In this document: positions 6,615 through 53,157 of the stretch, one piece after another
How the letters are laid out: each line of letters starts with the position of its first letter
Position numbering within the stretch: the stretch's first letter is position 1
UHGV virus genome: UHGV-1334481
DNA length: 57,107 nt
Reading direction: 5' to 3' (one strand)
From: a virus
Notes under the pieces: model-generated
The model's input: the letters and a program-made list of their open reading frames with translations, nothing else
Databases searched by the model: none
Told to the model about the DNA's origin: nothing
Made by a program: the position numbers and the translations under genes

Positions 6615-8594
6615 TTAACCTGCAAGACCAGTTAACTCATCGAAATCTGCACCAGTAGCAGTTGCTACGAAGTTCAAGGTAATGTAGTTAATGCTTCTAG
6701 CCGGTTGAATGTAGAATGTTGCAACAAACTCATTTCTATCAATTACTGACGGAGTGTTATTTGTTGTATCGCAAACTACACGATATTCATAAATTCCACC
6801 GAGAGCTTTAATTCCCTGTAAGTATTGGGCAGTTTCTGTGCGGAATGATGAACGAGTAAACGCGTTGTTTAATTCGAACAAACGATATTTTGAACTACGT
6901 CCGATATTCGTTTTCAACATATTAAACAGACGACGAACGTTAATACGATCAAATGGAGAAGGAACAGAAGTAGCTGTTTTATCACCATATAATACGTAAC
7001 CATCACCACCTGTACCAGTTACTGGGTTGATAGCTTCTTGATATAAACGGTCGCGCTGAGCTTGGCGAGTTTCAATAGCAAGTTTAATAACGTTAAGAAT
7101 CTGGCCACGATTATAACCAGCTGGAGACATCCAAGTCTGAGAAACGTTATCAGTTCTCGCGCATAAACCAGCAATGTCAGCTGCTAATGGAACCCAACGA
7201 TTTACATCATTATATTTGTCATACTGATACTTGTAGTTACCATCAATTGCTGCGTAGGTTGAACTGATATTAAAGTTATTATCAGTGTATGAACCTGATG
7301 CGGTTCTCCAATTGACTAAGTTATCAACAGCACGAGTTACAGGAATTCCAACAACAGTTTCACGCGGTGGTGAGCACAATACTAAGCAATCTTGGCGAGC
7401 ATCTCCAATTGAAACGACGTGTTTTTGGACAGTAGATGCTGTTTCTAAAGATTCACCGGCACAAGAACCCGCAATAAACAACTGAACGTCAACAGATTCG
7501 CGGTCAGCAAAGAAGTCCCAAGCTTCCATCAAATCTCCTGCTGTTACTTCAGCATTTGATGATAATCCACCAGACAGAGTTAAAATTCCAGAGAAGCCTT
7601 CTGGCCAGTTTTGTGCAGTTGCAAAAATATACTCTGAACCGCCTTTTGCGAAAAAGTCATCAATATAGATGTTACTATCGTAAATATCTTTTTCACCACG
7701 CTTTGTTGAAAGAACAACGCTTTGAACAATAGCATCATTGCGACGAACTATGATAGCGTATTGTGAATCAGTTTGCGGTCCATATCCAAACACCGCTTTA
7801 GCAGTAGATGCGCGTGTTCCGCCACCTGGATAAATTGGAAGTAATGCAGAAGCACCTTTTGCGTAGTCAGCTTTAGATACGATTTCAATTTCGATTTTAT
7901 CGCCCAACTCGCCTGGATAAAGAGCTACTACTCCAGGAATTCCATATTTTTCGAGATTTGCCTGAAAGTCAACGGCTGTCATAGCAGCTTCGGCATTTTC
8001 AATTTCAGCTAATAAAATACCAGAATCAGTAATAATTTTTCCAAGAGTTATTACTGCAGCTAAACCAGAGGAAGACGAAGAAATTTCCGCGGTCCAATTA
8101 GAACCTAATGCTGGATATTCGCCTACTTCTTTTGCTTTAGCGATAATTTTTGCGGTAGGAATATTAATTTTCTTAATTTTTCCATCAGCATCTACTTCGG
8201 TAACTTTACATTCTGTTTCAACATCTTCTGAAACATACTTAACCGTGATTTTATCTCCAACCGCGTAGTTACTACCTGGGGTAGAAATAGTGTATTCAAT
8301 ATTACCGGTAATCGGAGATGAGTTTTTAGCGGTATCTCTATCGACAGCACGCACGACTCGCAAATCATTTCCATATTGTAAGAAATTCATTGCAGACATA
8401 AAATAGTCAGCAGTTTCAGTTGTAGGTTGACCAAAAGTATTAACTAAATCTACTTCATTTGTAACCTGTTTAATTTGAAAAGCAGGACCCCACTGGAATT
8501 TACCGGCCAAAGCTGCTGTACCAGTAGAGTTATTAACCACGGTGCTTTGAACCGTAGTTTCTTTGAGCTCAATGCCCGGAGATAATAAAGTCAT
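6615..8594 (-). CDS. 18: contractile tail sheath protein gp18
   Basis: 659-aa ORF, same length as T4 gp18; conserved position. Confidence 0.95.
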   Translation of the reverse strand: MTLLSPGIELKETTVQSTVVNNSTGTAALAGKFQWGPAFQIKQVTNEVDLVNTFGQPTTETADYFMSAMNFLQYGNDLRVVRAVDRDTAKNSSPITGNIEYTISTPGSNYAVGDKITVKYVSEDVETECKVTEVDADGKIKKINIPTAKIIAKAKEVGEYPALGSNWTAEISSSSSGLAAVITLGKIITDSGILLAEIENAEAAMTAVDFQANLEKYGIPGVVALYPGELGDKIEIEIVSKADYAKGASALLPIYPGGGTRASTAKAVFGYGPQTDSQYAIIVRRNDAIVQSVVLSTKRGEKDIYDSNIYIDDFFAKGGSEYIFATAQNWPEGFSGILTLSGGLSSNAEVTAGDLMEAWDFFADRESVDVQLFIAGSCAGESLETASTVQKHVVSIGDARQDCLVLCSPPRETVVGIPVTRAVDNLVNWRTASGSYTDNNFNISSTYAAIDGNYKYQYDKYNDVNRWVPLAADIAGLCARTDNVSQTWMSPAGYNRGQILNVIKLAIETRQAQRDRLYQEAINPVTGTGGDGYVLYGDKTATSVPSPFDRINVRRLFNMLKTNIGRSSKYRLFELNNAFTRSSFRTETAQYLQGIKALGGIYEYRVVCDTTNNTPSVIDRNEFVATFYIQPARSINYITLNFVATATGADFDELTGLAG

Positions 8595-8622
8595 TTTTAA
8601 TCCTCTTTAATATGCTTTAATA

Positions 8623-11763
<3,141 letters not shown>

Positions 11764-34760: not shown

Positions 34761-34833
34761 TGGGAATTAGCCAAGTTGGTAAGGCACTGGATTTTGATTC
34801 CAGGATGCAAAGGTTCGAGTCCTTTATTCCCAG
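34761..34833 (+). tRNA. tRNA-Gln (anticodon UUG)
   Basis: Hand-folded cloverleaf: acceptor tgggaat/attccca, anticodon loop ttTTGat, T-arm aaagg-ttcgagt-ccttt; no encoded CCA. Confidence 0.8.
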
Positions 34834-34834
34834 C

Positions 34835-34921
34835 GCGAGAATGGTCAAATTGGTAAAGGCACAGCACTTAAAATGCTGCGGAATGATTTCCTTGTGGGTT
34901 CGAGTCCCACTTCTCGCACCA
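34835..34921 (+). tRNA. tRNA-Leu (anticodon UAA), long variable arm
   Basis: Acceptor gcgagaa/ttctcgc, anticodon loop ctTAAaa, T-arm gtggg-ttcgagt-cccac, encoded CCA. Confidence 0.8.
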
Positions 34922-34926
34922 AATTT

Positions 34927-35000
<74 letters not shown>

Positions 35001-35010
35001 ATTTAATTTA

Positions 35011-35084
35011 CTCCGTGTAGCTCAGTTTGGTAGAGCGCCTGATTTGGGATCAGGAGGTCCAAGGTTCAAATCCTTGTATGGAGA
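35011..35084 (+). tRNA. tRNA-Pro (anticodon UGG)
   Basis: Anticodon stem cctga/tcagg with loop ttTGGga, T-arm caagg-ttcaaat-ccttg; acceptor has two G-U pairs. Confidence 0.75.
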
Positions 35085-35086
35085 CT

Positions 35087-35176
35087 GGAGGCGTGGCAGA
35101 GTGGTTTAATGCACCGGTCTTGAAAACCGGCAGTCGCTCCGGCGACTCATAGGTTCAAATCCTATCGCCTCCGCCA
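35087..35176 (+). tRNA. tRNA-Ser (anticodon UGA), long variable arm
   Basis: Acceptor ggaggcg/cgcctcc, anticodon stem ccggt/accgg with loop ctTGAaa, encoded CCA. Confidence 0.8.
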
Positions 35177-35181
35177 GTTTT

Positions 35182-35257
35182 GCTGATTTAGCTCAGTAGG
35201 TAGAGCAACTCACTTGTAATGAGAAGGTCGGCGGTTCGATTCCGTCAATCAGCACCA
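35182..35257 (+). tRNA. tRNA-Thr (anticodon UGU)
   Basis: Acceptor gctgatt/aatcagc, anticodon loop ctTGTaa, T-arm ggcgg-ttcgatt-ccgtc, encoded CCA. Confidence 0.8.
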
Positions 35258-35258
35258 A

Positions 35259-35333
35259 GGCCCTGTAGCTGGAAGGTTCAAGCAAGCGACTCATAATCGC
35301 CAGATGGTGGTTCAATTCCACCCAGGGCCACCA
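35259..35333 (+). tRNA. tRNA-Ile (anticodon CAU, presumed lysidine-modified) or tRNA-Met
   Basis: Acceptor ggccctg/cagggcc, anticodon loop ctCATaa, encoded CCA; T4 tRNA-Ile is known to carry CAU (memory). Confidence 0.75.
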
Positions 35334-35337
35334 ATCT

Positions 35338-35412
35338 GGATGTGTAGCTCAGTGGTAGAGCAGTTGACTGTTAATCAATTGGTCCATGGTTCGAATCCAT
35401 GCATGTCCGCCA
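35338..35412 (+). tRNA. tRNA-Asn (anticodon GUU), tentative
   Basis: Anticodon stem gttga/tcaat with loop ctGTTaa, T-arm catgg-ttcgaat-ccatg, encoded CCA; acceptor has two G-U pairs. Confidence 0.65.
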
Positions 35413-35416
35413 AATA

Positions 35417-35492
35417 CGAGGCATAGCTCAGAAGGAAGAGCAAGGACCTTCTAAGTCCTAGGTCGTAGGTTCGATCCCTACTGCCTCGACCA
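35417..35492 (+). tRNA. tRNA-Arg (anticodon UCU)
   Basis: Acceptor cgaggca/tgcctcg (C1-G72), anticodon stem aggac/gtcct with loop ctTCTaa, encoded CCA. Confidence 0.8.
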
Positions 35493-50237: not shown

Positions 50238-50537
50238 GTGAGTGAGTCGAAGAGAATCAATATGAAACGATTAGTATTAGAAGTTAGTCCGCTTTTTGGT
50301 GAATTGGCTATAGAAAAAGTAAATAACATGTATCGTTTGACACAAGAAGACGATATGCTGTATTTTATGCCTAGTGAAATCATTCATTTAACCCAAATTG
50401 AATATCCTTATACTGATAAAATAGTAAGCATCAATGATGAGCACAAAATTCATTTTTATTCTTCATGCCCAGGATTTAATATTAAAAGTGAGTCAATGTG
50501 CTTATCAATTAATAATTTAATTGGGATAATTTTATAA
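50238..50537 (+). CDS. hypothetical protein (GTG start); possibly the 5' part of a gene continuing in another frame to 50809
   Basis: 99-aa ORF with AGGAG RBS 9 nt upstream of GTG; a second frame is open for 97 codons from 50516 to 50809 with no usable start. Confidence 0.45.
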   Translation: MSESKRINMKRLVLEVSPLFGELAIEKVNNMYRLTQEDDMLYFMPSEIIHLTQIEYPYTDKIVSINDEHKIHFYSSCPGFNIKSESMCLSINNLIGIIL

Positions 50538-50815
50538 CTTACATTAAATATTTTTATTATTCTAATGAAAGAAAACATAGTTTAAAATGGCTCAAAAATT
50601 GCAATGCTATTATTACTAACGCTTGCGATCAGTGCGATCAAAATGATGAAACTGTTTTAAATGTGTCAAAATGCTATGAAGATGGAGATGTCTTAACTAT
50701 TCGTCAAATTGATGATTTTCGTTCACATATTGTCACATTTACCAAAGACGAAGCTATTGCGCTAAAGACTTATCTCGATTCTGTCATTCCAACTATGATT
50801 TCAAAGTGAGGAAAT

Positions 50816-51337
50816 ATGTTTATTTCAAGTGAAAGCGGTTTAATTCGTGTTGAATTTAAAAATGACATCTTTCTTATTCAAGGAGATGATATTATTAAAA
50901 TGAGTTATGATGAAATCAAGAAAATTTGTCATGCTCTTGAAAGTCATGGAAAAGTGAACGCTGTTATTGATATTGGCGATTTATGGGTGACACTTTATGA
51001 AGTATCCGAAGGATTTAACATTGAAGATGAAAATAACATTTTAGCTATTGATAAAAGAAGTGATTTGTTTGATGTGTTAAAAGTTTATGAACAGTCAAAC
51101 GGTGGAAGAAAAGCTGTATTGATTTATCAAAAACCACATTCATGTGGAACTGCTTCAATCATTTCAGATATTGAAGATGAAACTGATACTTATATGTGTG
51201 TTTTAAAAGCTGGTGGTGACCGTCATCCGGATTTTATTTCTATTCGTCAAAACAATGGAGAAATTTCATTATCAAAATCAGAAGCTGAAGCTATGATTAA
51301 GTATTTAACAACTGTTACACCTTCAATGAAAGGATGA
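50816..51337 (+). CDS. hypothetical protein
   Basis: 173-aa ORF with GAGGAAA RBS. Confidence 0.55.
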   Translation: MFISSESGLIRVEFKNDIFLIQGDDIIKMSYDEIKKICHALESHGKVNAVIDIGDLWVTLYEVSEGFNIEDENNILAIDKRSDLFDVLKVYEQSNGGRKAVLIYQKPHSCGTASIISDIEDETDTYMCVLKAGGDRHPDFISIRQNNGEISLSKSEAEAMIKYLTTVTPSMKG

Positions 51338-51819
51338 TTATAATTATGATTATTAATGAAAACTCTTGGCACTTTAAAATTTACTCGGCATTTAACAGCA
51401 CATGGAATCGTCCAAAAACGTTATGTGCTTATTTTTGGAAAACGTTTCTCCCGGTATTAGCGGTTTCAATTGTTGGATTTGCAACTTTAACAGGTGCTGC
51501 AATAATTGGCCAAGAAATTTTAATTAAATTCTTTGTCTTTAGTAGTCTATGGACATTAATTCCAGCTTCAATTGGTATAGGCATTTTAGCATTATCGGTC
51601 ATGGTTCTTATTGCTGTCGGGGCGGTAATTGGTCCTTCCTGGTTGTTAGACAAATATAACGACCGAAAGCTCAATAAAGAAATTGAGCTCATTGTACAAA
51701 ACGAAGAACGAATCAAAAATGGACTTGAGCCTATTCAACCCAAGAAATCTATTATCGTCGAATTTTTAAAAGCGCGTAAAGCTAAAGTATGTCCTGTTAT
51801 TGAATATAAGGCTGAATGA
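51334..51819 (+). CDS. membrane protein
   Basis: 161 aa with several hydrophobic helices; the start may instead be ATG 51346. Confidence 0.55.
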   Translation: MIIIMIINENSWHFKIYSAFNSTWNRPKTLCAYFWKTFLPVLAVSIVGFATLTGAAIIGQEILIKFFVFSSLWTLIPASIGIGILALSVMVLIAVGAVIGPSWLLDKYNDRKLNKEIELIVQNEERIKNGLEPIQPKKSIIVEFLKARKAKVCPVIEYKAE

Positions 51820-52829
51820 TGAAAACAGTAATGAAAAGCTATTTTGGTAGTCATCTTTATGGAACTTCTACTCCAGAATCTGATGTAGATTTTAAAGAAA
51901 TCTTTGTTCCTCCTGCTCGTGATATTCTTATCGGAAATGTTAAAGAGCATATGAGTAAAAACACTAACAACACATCATCTAAAAACACTAAAGATGATAT
52001 TGACCATGAACTATACAGTCTTAAGTATTTCTTTAAATTAGCAGCAGATGGTGAAACTGTAGCATTGGATATGCTCCACACTCCACCTGAACTGGTAGTT
52101 AAATCTGATTTGCCTGATGTATGGAAGTTTATTCAAGACAATCGTTCTCGTTTTTATACGACTAACATGAAATCCTACTTAGGATATGTTCGCAAGCAAG
52201 CTTCTAAATACGGTGTTAAGGGTTCTCGTTTGGCCGCATTACGTGATGTATTGAAAGTAGTTAATCAAATCCCTGAGCAATGGGTTGATTACCAAGAAGA
52301 CGGTTCCATTAAGCAGCGTCGAACTAAAGTTGAAGATATTAAGCATCGTCTTCCAGAGAACGAATTCTGTGAATGGGTATTCCATAATCATGAGAAAACA
52401 GGCCCACAAACGTTCTACACTGTGTTGGGTCGTAAATATCAAACAACACTTTCTCTTATTGAGCTTAAGCAATCTTTGAATAAACTTGATGCTGAATACG
52501 GCGAACGTGCTCGTAAGGCTGAAGCGAATGAGGGCATTGACTGGAAAGCTCTGAGTCATGCTTGCCGTGGTGGACTCCAACTATTGGAAATTTACAAAAC
52601 TGGTGACTTAGTCTATCCACTTCAAGACGCTCCATTTATTCTCGACGTGAAGTTGGGTAAACATCCATTTAAAACTGTTCAAGAGTTTTTGGAAGATGTG
52701 GTCGATCAAGTAGAAGCAGCATCCATTGAAGCTTCTAAGAACGGTATACAGCAAAAAGTAGACATGTGTTTTTGGGATGACTTCCTTGAGAGGGTTTATC
52801 TTGAAAACCATCGAAGTTATTATAAATGA
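51816..52829 (+). CDS. nucleotidyltransferase-fold protein (Pol-beta-like NTase motif)
   Basis: 337 aa; N-terminal GS...(10 residues)...DVD motif (YFGSHLYGTSTPESDVDF) typical of minimal nucleotidyltransferases; by eye only. Confidence 0.55.
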   Translation: MMKTVMKSYFGSHLYGTSTPESDVDFKEIFVPPARDILIGNVKEHMSKNTNNTSSKNTKDDIDHELYSLKYFFKLAADGETVALDMLHTPPELVVKSDLPDVWKFIQDNRSRFYTTNMKSYLGYVRKQASKYGVKGSRLAALRDVLKVVNQIPEQWVDYQEDGSIKQRRTKVEDIKHRLPENEFCEWVFHNHEKTGPQTFYTVLGRKYQTTLSLIELKQSLNKLDAEYGERARKAEANEGIDWKALSHACRGGLQLLEIYKTGDLVYPLQDAPFILDVKLGKHPFKTVQEFLEDVVDQVEAASIEASKNGIQQKVDMCFWDDFLERVYLENHRSYYK

Positions 52830-52831
52830 TA

Positions 52832-52856
52832 GGGAGCCTTCGGGTTCCCTTTTTTA
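52832..52856 (+). terminator. rho-independent terminator
   Basis: gggagcc-ttcg-ggttccc hairpin followed by TTTTTT. Confidence 0.7.
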
Positions 52857-52944
52857 TTTCAAAATTTTTTCACAAAACGGTTTACAAGCATTAGTGTCCC
52901 GCTCGGTTTATTTGGATTTGGGTGTTCACACTAATGAAGAAATT

Positions 52945-53157
52945 ATGGTCAGGGTTGAAGATGTTATTCTTTCAACTGACATGATGCAAAAGCGTGGTCT
53001 TTCTGATGAAGAAACTTATAAAGCATTATCATGGATGAAAGTTAATGTTAATCGTTTACGCAATGTTTCACTGCGTACTGCTCTTTATCTTGCTGACTTT
53101 ATTATGACCGACAAAAACGGTTGGGAAGAAATCGCTGAGGTTACTCTTCTGAAATAA
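52945..53157 (+). CDS. hypothetical protein (start uncertain)
   Basis: Tool ORF 52777-53157 spans the terminator and promoter; first plausible ATG downstream of them is 52945; RBS weak. Confidence 0.35.
   Translation: MVRVEDVILSTDMMQKRGLSDEETYKALSWMKVNVNRLRNVSLRTALYLADFIMTDKNGWEEIAEVTLLK

Follow-up and report, generated by a model that had tools for sequence, protein, structure and literature searches.

RNA repair as counter-defence was first exemplified by the Pnk/RNA ligase pathway of phage T4; Pnk and the ligases Rnl1 and Rnl2 work on 3'-OH/5'-P ends, and RloC-type nucleases have been proposed to defeat this repair through nucleotide excision. A family of nucleotidyltransferases that was named RlaP (PF10127) for its association with RNA ligases was predicted, in a comparison of jumbo phages, to restore lost nucleotides at RNA ends prior to ligation, for instance after the action of RloC (PMC7824862). 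Here we describe the nrdC.11 gene of the virus genome UHGV-1334481, a Tequatrovirus of which a stretch of 57,107 nucleotides was analysed (the window), and relate its product to this family. We favour the reading, to which we assign a probability of about 55%, that NrdC.11 extends RNA 3' ends without a template, as a nucleotidyltransferase in the service of T4 tRNA repair.

The characterised members of the family are two Pseudomonas RlaPs, which add 1-2 nucleoside monophosphates (NMP), or their deoxy forms (dNMP), to RNA 3'-OH ends. Their preferred metal is Mn2+, and on a tRNA mimic they favour the end at the broken anticodon loop over that of the acceptor (PMC12776372). They label RNAs of rRNA, tRNA and fragment size with little nucleoside triphosphate (NTP) specificity, are inactive on DNA and proteins (E. 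coli proteins were not labelled), and consist of a nucleotidyltransferase domain and a helical domain, which form a charged cleft (PMC12776372). RlaP partly rescues the aminoacylation of a tRNA that misses one anticodon-loop nucleotide, and its products suit 5'-phosphate ligases better than RtcB, a problem that the preprint raises itself (PMC12776372). The family assignment of T4 NrdC.11 is already published: its orthologs were matched to the COG3541 nucleotidyltransferases by Nolan et al. in 2006 (PMC1524935), and the T4 protein was explicitly placed in the RlaP family by Carruthers, Fatma and Huang (bioRxiv, December 2025; PMC12776372), so that an earlier sequence-only reading of this DNA, which had considered the protein to be of unknown role, is out of date on this point.

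The open reading frame (ORF) concerned has 337 codons (51816..52829, +; protein N-terminus MMKTVMKSYFGSHLYGTSTPESDVDF) and is the ortholog of T4 nrdC.11, the encoded protein being identical to T4 NrdC.11 in 332/336 residues, of equal length and located in the same genomic region. In T4 the gene lies between nrdC and mobD and encodes a protein of 38.9 kDa. At the nucleotide level the identity is 94-95% to nrdC.11 of T4, RB14 and RB32 and 94-99% to that of hundreds of Tequatroviruses, with matches in 670 phage records. Residues 9-26 read YFGSHLYGTSTPESDVDF and hold the catalytic signature G11-S12-x10-D23-x-D25 (GSHLYGTSTPESDVD; 51846..51890, +), and with F10 and F26 included (F10-G11-S12 ... D23-V24-D25-F26) they also satisfy the superfamily signature hG[GS]-x9-13-Dh[DE]h. 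Such a short motif is not significant by itself, because, when the window is translated in all six frames, GS-x10-D-x-D (the strict pattern) turns up 2 times and G[GS]-x9-13-D-x-[DE] (the relaxed one) 8 times; in view of these 2-8 chance occurrences we rejected the motif alone as sufficient evidence. Decisive, and far beyond chance, were the profile searches: they gave a match to Pfam PF10127 with E 3.4e-11 (43.7 bits, cut-off 23), limited to model positions 23-142 of 249 and also precomputed for all close homologs, and a full-length match to PHROG 388 ('nucleotidyltransferase') with E 9.3e-136.

An exhaustive HMMER search yielded 3421 representatives of 50%-identity clusters at E <= 1e-3, including 827 at E <= 1e-30 that were almost all full length, and the signature motif was kept in 342/344 full-length homologs retrieved. 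Within 44 diverse members (34-55% identity) the invariant residues were G11, S12, G16, S22, D23, D25, N57, D63, Y124 and Y132 in the N-terminal half and R231, K244, H248, R251, P268 and K279 in the C-terminal half. A second alignment of 59 further sequences agreed with these invariants, and G11, S12, D23, D25 and D63 were invariant in both. The ratio of nonsynonymous to synonymous substitution rates (dN/dS) was 0.03-0.08 in pairwise comparisons with other T4-like orthologs where dS was unsaturated. The low dN/dS and the near-complete retention of the motif therefore show nrdC.11 to be under strong purifying selection, its active site being intact.

For the comparison with canonical RlaP we built a profile of the short form from proteins of ~235-290 aa that occur in the bacterial loci described below; two of these that were scanned matched PF10127 over the full length (E 1e-62 to 1e-73). 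In a profile-profile alignment (hhalign) of the NrdC.11 clade with this canonical profile only residues 3-131 align (probability 93.5%, E 2.2e-7), with D23, D25 and D63 paired with D43, D45 and D82 of the canonical short RlaPs. On these profile data NrdC.11 therefore belongs to a divergent, 'long' clade of the RlaP family, in agreement with the separate cluster that it occupies in the published sequence similarity network. Canonical RlaP of P. fluorescens and P. aeruginosa and NrdC.11 have in common a polymerase-beta-type (Pol-beta) N-terminal domain and a C-terminal helical domain, whereas NrdC.11 is ~70 residues longer and differs by a beta insertion and by a C-terminal signature of its own, DWKAxSHAxR. 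Since a canonical RlaP often accompanies the long form in the same locus, the long form is a paralog and not an ortholog of it.

An AlphaFold2 model built from a 59-sequence alignment (mean predicted local distance difference test score 88.5, predicted template modelling score 0.74) gives NrdC.11 a predicted alpha/beta nucleotidyltransferase fold. The part that matches RlaP is the N-terminal Pol-beta-type domain (51816..52220, +; about residues 1-135, alpha/beta). Within it, the invariant D63 of the strand DDIDHE (52002..52004, +) is the predicted third metal-binding carboxylate; it is located on model strand E62-68 and its counterpart D82 is invariant in canonical RlaP, so a catalytic role is probable. 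The N-terminal domain is followed by a variable beta-rich insertion (52263..52451, +; about residues 150-212), the gappiest stretch of the family alignment, with model strands at 155-159, 165-169, 185-192, 196-203 and 206-209 and a conserved basic hairpin, Y201-x-V-x-G205-R206-K207, at its end. The insertion separates the nucleotidyltransferase domain from an all-helical C-terminal domain (52455..52826, +; about residues 214-336), which contains the family signature D242-W-K244-A-x-S-H248-A-x-R251 (52539-52568, +) as well as the invariant R231 and K279.

Sequence searches of the PDB with the protein, the clade profile and the canonical-RlaP profile returned no meaningful match to a solved structure. 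In structure comparisons the best match was HalB of the Hailong system (PDB 9dbh, 9dbj; score 10.0, 140 residues aligned), followed by 3c18, a 'nucleotidyltransferase-like protein' from the Joint Center for Structural Genomics (JCSG; 9.1), and kanamycin nucleotidyltransferase (KNTase; 7.7), and the C-terminal domain resembled HEPN-type/nucleotidyltransferase substrate-binding four-helix bundles (6.3-7.5). Against predicted viral structures the model aligned over >300 columns with many phage 'nucleotidyltransferases' of 230-290 aa (template modelling (TM) score 0.55-0.72, target-normalised); the two-domain architecture therefore seems to be common to both, with the ~70 extra residues of NrdC.11 forming the insertion. 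The sequence-only reading had proposed a nucleotidyltransferase fold from the presence of GS-x10-DVD in a 337-aa ORF. The ORF is present exactly as claimed, the signature was recovered as G11-S12...D23-V24-D25, and the two observations by which that reading asked to be judged, profile or structural similarity to Pol-beta nucleotidyltransferases (PF10127, PHROG 388 and the structural matches) and retention of the motif in homologs, were both made, and its call of a Pol-beta-type fold was right.

Another line of evidence is the genomic context of bacterial homologs. We collected 80 cellular loci with members of the clade (32-54% identity), mainly from Desulfobacterales, Nitrospirota, Alphaproteobacteria and some archaeal metagenome-assembled genomes (MAGs), and counted neighbours by tblastn with verified representatives. 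A canonical short RlaP was found beside the long form in 24 of the 80 loci, usually immediately downstream and overlapping; RtcB was a neighbour in nine, Pnkp in seven, Hen1 in six and Ro60/TROVE in three. At least one of RtcB, Pnkp, Hen1 and Ro60 was present in 15/80 loci, and a repair gene or a short RlaP in 31/80 (22/46 when only loci of >=12 kb are counted). Canonical RlaP, found in Pseudomonas in an RtcB-RlaP-RtcA operon (PMC12776372), and the NrdC.11 clade are thus both tied to RNA repair genes in bacteria.

The tandem arrangement of a long and a short RlaP (e.g. in loci L008, L019, L025, L026, L053, L054, L059, L070, L071 and L078, among others) has the long gene at about 8001-8980 and the short gene at about 8980-9800 of the locus, with stop and start codons that frequently overlap; in several loci, for instance L041, L059 and L078, the pair adjoins Hen1-Pnkp or RtcB. 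In L059, a locus of Asticcacaulis, the order is Hen1-Pnkp-long-short. The catalytic signature was present in the long paralog of 13 of the 15 tandem pairs checked (of the remaining two, one is truncated at the edge of its contig and one possibly has a mis-called start), and in the 15 short partners that were aligned the catalytic residues were invariant. The tandem may represent a two-enzyme module. The best 'cellular' matches, with 53-54% identity, came from a 'Bacilli bacterium' MAG (L004) and from Flagellimonas marina (L005) and have phage-like neighbours such as NMNAT-Nudix; these may be contigs of T4-like phages that were binned or assembled with bacterial genomes.

In phages the picture is different. 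No short RlaP was found within 6 kb of the nrdC.11 homolog in 78 viral loci, nor any canonical RlaP in any Escherichia phage record, and among phages the canonical form was encountered only in phiKZ-like and other jumbo phages. T4-like phages carry the long form only, far from RNA ligase genes. Near distant phage homologs we observed RtcB within about 3.5 kb in two loci and CCA-adding-type enzymes in three, and further HD proteins, a SpoU methylase and an ATP-dependent ligase. Class II CCA-adding/poly(A) polymerase head-domain enzymes resemble NrdC.11 in being template-independent Pol-beta enzymes that restore RNA 3' ends, an activity that for NrdC.11 would hold by analogy, but they form a separate family (PF01743), to which NrdC.11 has no match. 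The commonest neighbours of the distant phage homologs, which come from T4-like and jumbo phages, were genes for NAD salvage: NAMPT (9 loci), NMNAT-Nudix (11) and PRPP synthetase (5), found among loci L119-L153 (e.g. L128 9571-11049, L120 3087-4157 and L153 9314-10150). A functional link to NAD salvage was considered and not adopted, the probable cause being synteny inside one accessory-gene region; in cellular loci the association was limited to L004, L005 and L055, the first two being the phage-like ones.

With gene identity, fold, conserved active site, purifying selection and bacterial repair neighbourhoods established here, we infer by analogy the RNA substrate, the addition of 1-2 nucleotides and the anti-ribotoxin role of the T4 protein. 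In the mechanism that we favour D23, D25 and D63 would hold two divalent metals (probably Mn2+) and the NTP, as in the Pseudomonas RlaPs, and the RNA 3'-OH end would be bound in the cleft that the nucleotidyltransferase domain forms with the basic, helical domain at the C-terminus, after which one or two nucleotides would be added without a template. In this way nucleotides would be put back that cutting and excising host ribotoxins like RloC had trimmed from tRNA anticodon loops: T4 Pnk would heal the ends first, and T4 RNA ligase 1 or 2 would then reseal a functional tRNA, using the 3'-OH/5'-P ends left by NrdC.11. The T4 ligases would fit the end chemistry of RlaP better than RtcB does, because the product ends are 3'-OH/5'-P. 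The sequence-only reading had mentioned that phage proteins of this fold are frequently anti-defence or host-takeover factors; of this, anti-defence would survive only in the form of RNA repair against host anticodon nucleases.

Several observations weigh against this reading. The characterised RlaPs belong to another sequence cluster (cluster 1a in the published sequence similarity network, in which T4 NrdC.11 is in cluster 5; PMC12776372), and the activity of NrdC.11 is predicted by analogy with them. Detectable homology to canonical RlaP is confined to the N-terminal ~130 residues, and the substrate of NrdC.11 could differ from that of canonical RlaP because the C-terminal domain and the beta insertion are specific to the clade. 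The frequent occurrence of the long form with a canonical RlaP suggests that the two are not redundant in bacteria. No RNA repair gene adjoins nrdC.11 in this window or in T4, where it is flanked by homing endonuclease genes and by genes for small proteins of unknown or membrane type; the closest gene for an RNA ligase is rnlB, just outside the window start and >50 kb from nrdC.11, and in other T4-like phages the neighbours are NAD-salvage genes and not ligases. Finally, nrdC.11 is dispensable on laboratory hosts, since T4 survives the loss of nrdC.11-mobD.3 (PMC9825161) and the viable genome-reduced T4 clone T4_7t1 (OL964745.1) has a deletion that takes out mobD and nearly all of nrdC.11. In the record of this clone (L163) mobD.1 is fused at 2272-2619 to the last 119 nt of nrdC.11.

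A tentative extension of the favoured mechanism, which we consider possible rather than probable, takes NrdC.11 for a 'long RlaP' with a function of its own, which in bacteria would be the partner of short RlaP in RtcB and Pnkp/Hen1 repair operons. As the genes lie side by side, often with an overlap, and both active sites are kept, they might form a two-enzyme, possibly heterodimeric, nucleotide-restoration module, of which T4-like phages would keep the long subunit alone, together with Pnk and Rnl1/Rnl2, for re-inserting the wobble nucleotide removed by RloC, i.e. the third and so far missing step of T4 tRNA repair. The enzyme might also tail RNA 3' ends for a purpose other than anticodon-loop repair, either in the repair of the tRNA 3'-CCA end or in marking mRNA or small RNA (sRNA) for decay or stabilisation during host takeover. 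Fold and active site are equally compatible with such tailing, and the labelling of RNAs of varied size by the Pseudomonas enzymes with little NTP specificity (PMC12776372), the lack of an RNA ligase neighbour of nrdC.11 in T4-like phages and the CCA-adding-type enzymes in three distant phages are in line with it. We nevertheless regard it as unlikely, given that the bacterial members of the clade reside in ligase-containing repair operons (RtcB, Pnkp/Hen1) and not with decay machinery, and that RlaP adds 1-2 nucleotides only and favours the broken anticodon-loop end (PMC12776372). The subfamilies that the sequence-only reading had listed are mostly wrong, with the tRNA nucleotidyltransferases coming closest.

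The other rivals leave RNA ends altogether. HalB being the best structural match, NrdC.11 might be an oligonucleotide synthase that makes short protein-primed or free oligo(deoxy)nucleotides, possibly mimicking the inhibitory oligo-dA of Hailong and so keeping the channel closed. However, only the generic nucleotidyltransferase core aligns (15% identity, whole-chain TM about 0.26), HalB, which makes oligodeoxyadenylate and is paired with the HalA channel, is a protein of 217 aa with no counterpart of the NrdC.11 C-terminal domain, sequence profiles assign the protein to RlaP, and DNA is not extended by RlaPs (PMC12776372). There is no HalA-like partner beside nrdC.11 (the upstream membrane ORF matches no family and is replaced by mobD in T4), and the bacterial homologs are found in RNA repair operons, which makes this explanation very improbable. 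Equally hard to maintain is an MNT-type protein AMPylase that would act as a phage antitoxin by adenylylating a HEPN-type or other host toxin. The fold would allow it, and MNT antitoxins were among the subfamilies listed; yet the MntA profile (NF047752) matched residues 9-26 only and with 13.2 bits, far below its cut-off of 60, NrdC.11 (336 aa) is three times the size of an MNT, its C-terminal domain shows no R-x4-6-H HEPN motif when read from the sequence, no toxin or HEPN gene is adjacent, and E. coli proteins are not labelled by RlaPs (PMC12776372). Least probable of all in our estimate is an enzyme acting on small molecules or cyclic nucleotides, be it an aminoglycoside/lincosamide-type nucleotidyltransferase or a CD-NTase-like synthase or sponge directed against CBASS, options that had been raised as antibiotic nucleotidyltransferases and CD-NTases. 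No Pfam, NCBIfam or PADLOC match to the ANT, SMODS/CD-NTase or cGAS families was obtained (with E <= 1 as the limit for CD-NTase/CBASS in Pfam and for all defence-system profiles of PADLOC), the neighbours are unrelated to CBASS, sequence identity to those structures is 8-13%, and the homologs' genomic context is RNA repair. KNTase/ANT(4') and 3c18 in particular show 8-10% identity and no profile match; the former act on antibiotics and the substrates of 3c18 are unknown.

As to the start of the gene, two ATGs lie side by side at 51816 and 51819, and the ORF ends with a TGA stop at 52827-52829. A Shine-Dalgarno sequence AAGG, read from the sequence (51808..51811, +), is located 4 nt 5' of the first and 7 nt 5' of the second ATG. 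The ATG at 51819 is the likelier start, because the AAGG is better spaced for it and because database orthologs, T4 included, are annotated with 336 aa, the length of the coding sequence 51819..52829 (+); a start at 51816 adds one Met. The ATG at 51819 and the TGA that ends the preceding ORF (51817-51819) overlap as TGATG, which suggests translational coupling of nrdC.11 to this ORF. The latter (51334..51819, +) encodes a predicted small membrane protein similar to RB32ORF096c, with hydrophobic segments visible in its translation and no Pfam family matched, and is apparently co-transcribed with nrdC.11. One nucleotide past the nrdC.11 stop a hairpin like that of an intrinsic terminator, AGGGAGCC-TTCG-GGTTCCCT followed by a T tract, was found (52831..52857, +), of which the stem-loop (52831-52850, before the T run) folds as RNA with -15.3 kcal/mol (z-score -3.32).

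The gene had been described as sitting in a plastic region between terminator and promoter modules. The terminator (-15.3 kcal/mol) and the plasticity stand, but of promoter-type signals near nrdC.11 there are only weak sigma-70-like consensus matches. Plasticity is seen on both sides of the gene: in T4 the homing endonuclease gene mobD is directly upstream, whereas this phage has ORFs similar to RB32ORF097c and RB32ORF096c instead, and T4 nrdC.10, intact downstream in T4, is reduced here to its last 91 codons. This remnant of nrdC.10, whose T4 product is a 322-aa AAA/STAND-like ATPase, starts just past the nrdC.11 terminator at 52882-53157 (within ORF 52777-53157), corresponds to T4 residues 232-322 with 90/91 identical and misses its own start codon. 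The ortholog of mobD.1 (T4 y05I) is in two pieces, at 50238-50537 and 50663-50809, the former limited to the N-terminal y05I domain (91% identity with residues 6-94 of T4 MobD.1) and the latter being a separate ORF of 48 aa similar to the C-terminal domain; an intact two-domain y05I paralog (PF24449 + PF24448) comes next, at 50816-51337. Elsewhere in the window nine tRNA genes are clustered at 34761-35492 (Gln, Leu, Gly, Pro, Ser, Thr, Met(CAT), Asn(GTT) and Arg); the T4 cluster has one gene fewer, the surplus one here apparently being tRNA-Asn.

Annotation of the gene in databases is often misleading. Many nrdC.11 orthologs in GenBank and UniRef are labelled 'thioredoxin', a label that apparently spread from the locus name nrdC.x, and one or more carry the label 'putative HNH homing endonuclease'; the sequence backs neither label, and this widespread misannotation is corrected here. 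A 'polynucleotide kinase' annotated upstream of the ortholog in Escherichia phage vB_EcoM_ESCO10 (OM386655.1; L003 3552-4004) was rejected as a link to RNA repair, as it is a hydrophobic membrane protein of 150 aa without a kinase match; the labels in this record look displaced, for instance 'tail fibers protein' on ORFs of 97 aa.

For the RlaP family nucleotide restoration is an idea that has been published before, and our analysis opens no new question in that respect. Apart from the annotation errors, it adds the distinction of the long clade, the recurrent long-plus-short tandems in bacterial RNA-repair operons and the lack of a short partner in T4-like phages. Given the separate long clade, the biochemistry of the Pseudomonas RlaPs is not simply transferable to the T4 protein, and the tandem pairs of bacteria offer a tractable system. 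If NrdC.11 restores the excised nucleotide, T4 would have a complete answer to ribotoxins of the RloC type, and a role would be given to a near-universal and strongly conserved accessory gene of T4-like phages.

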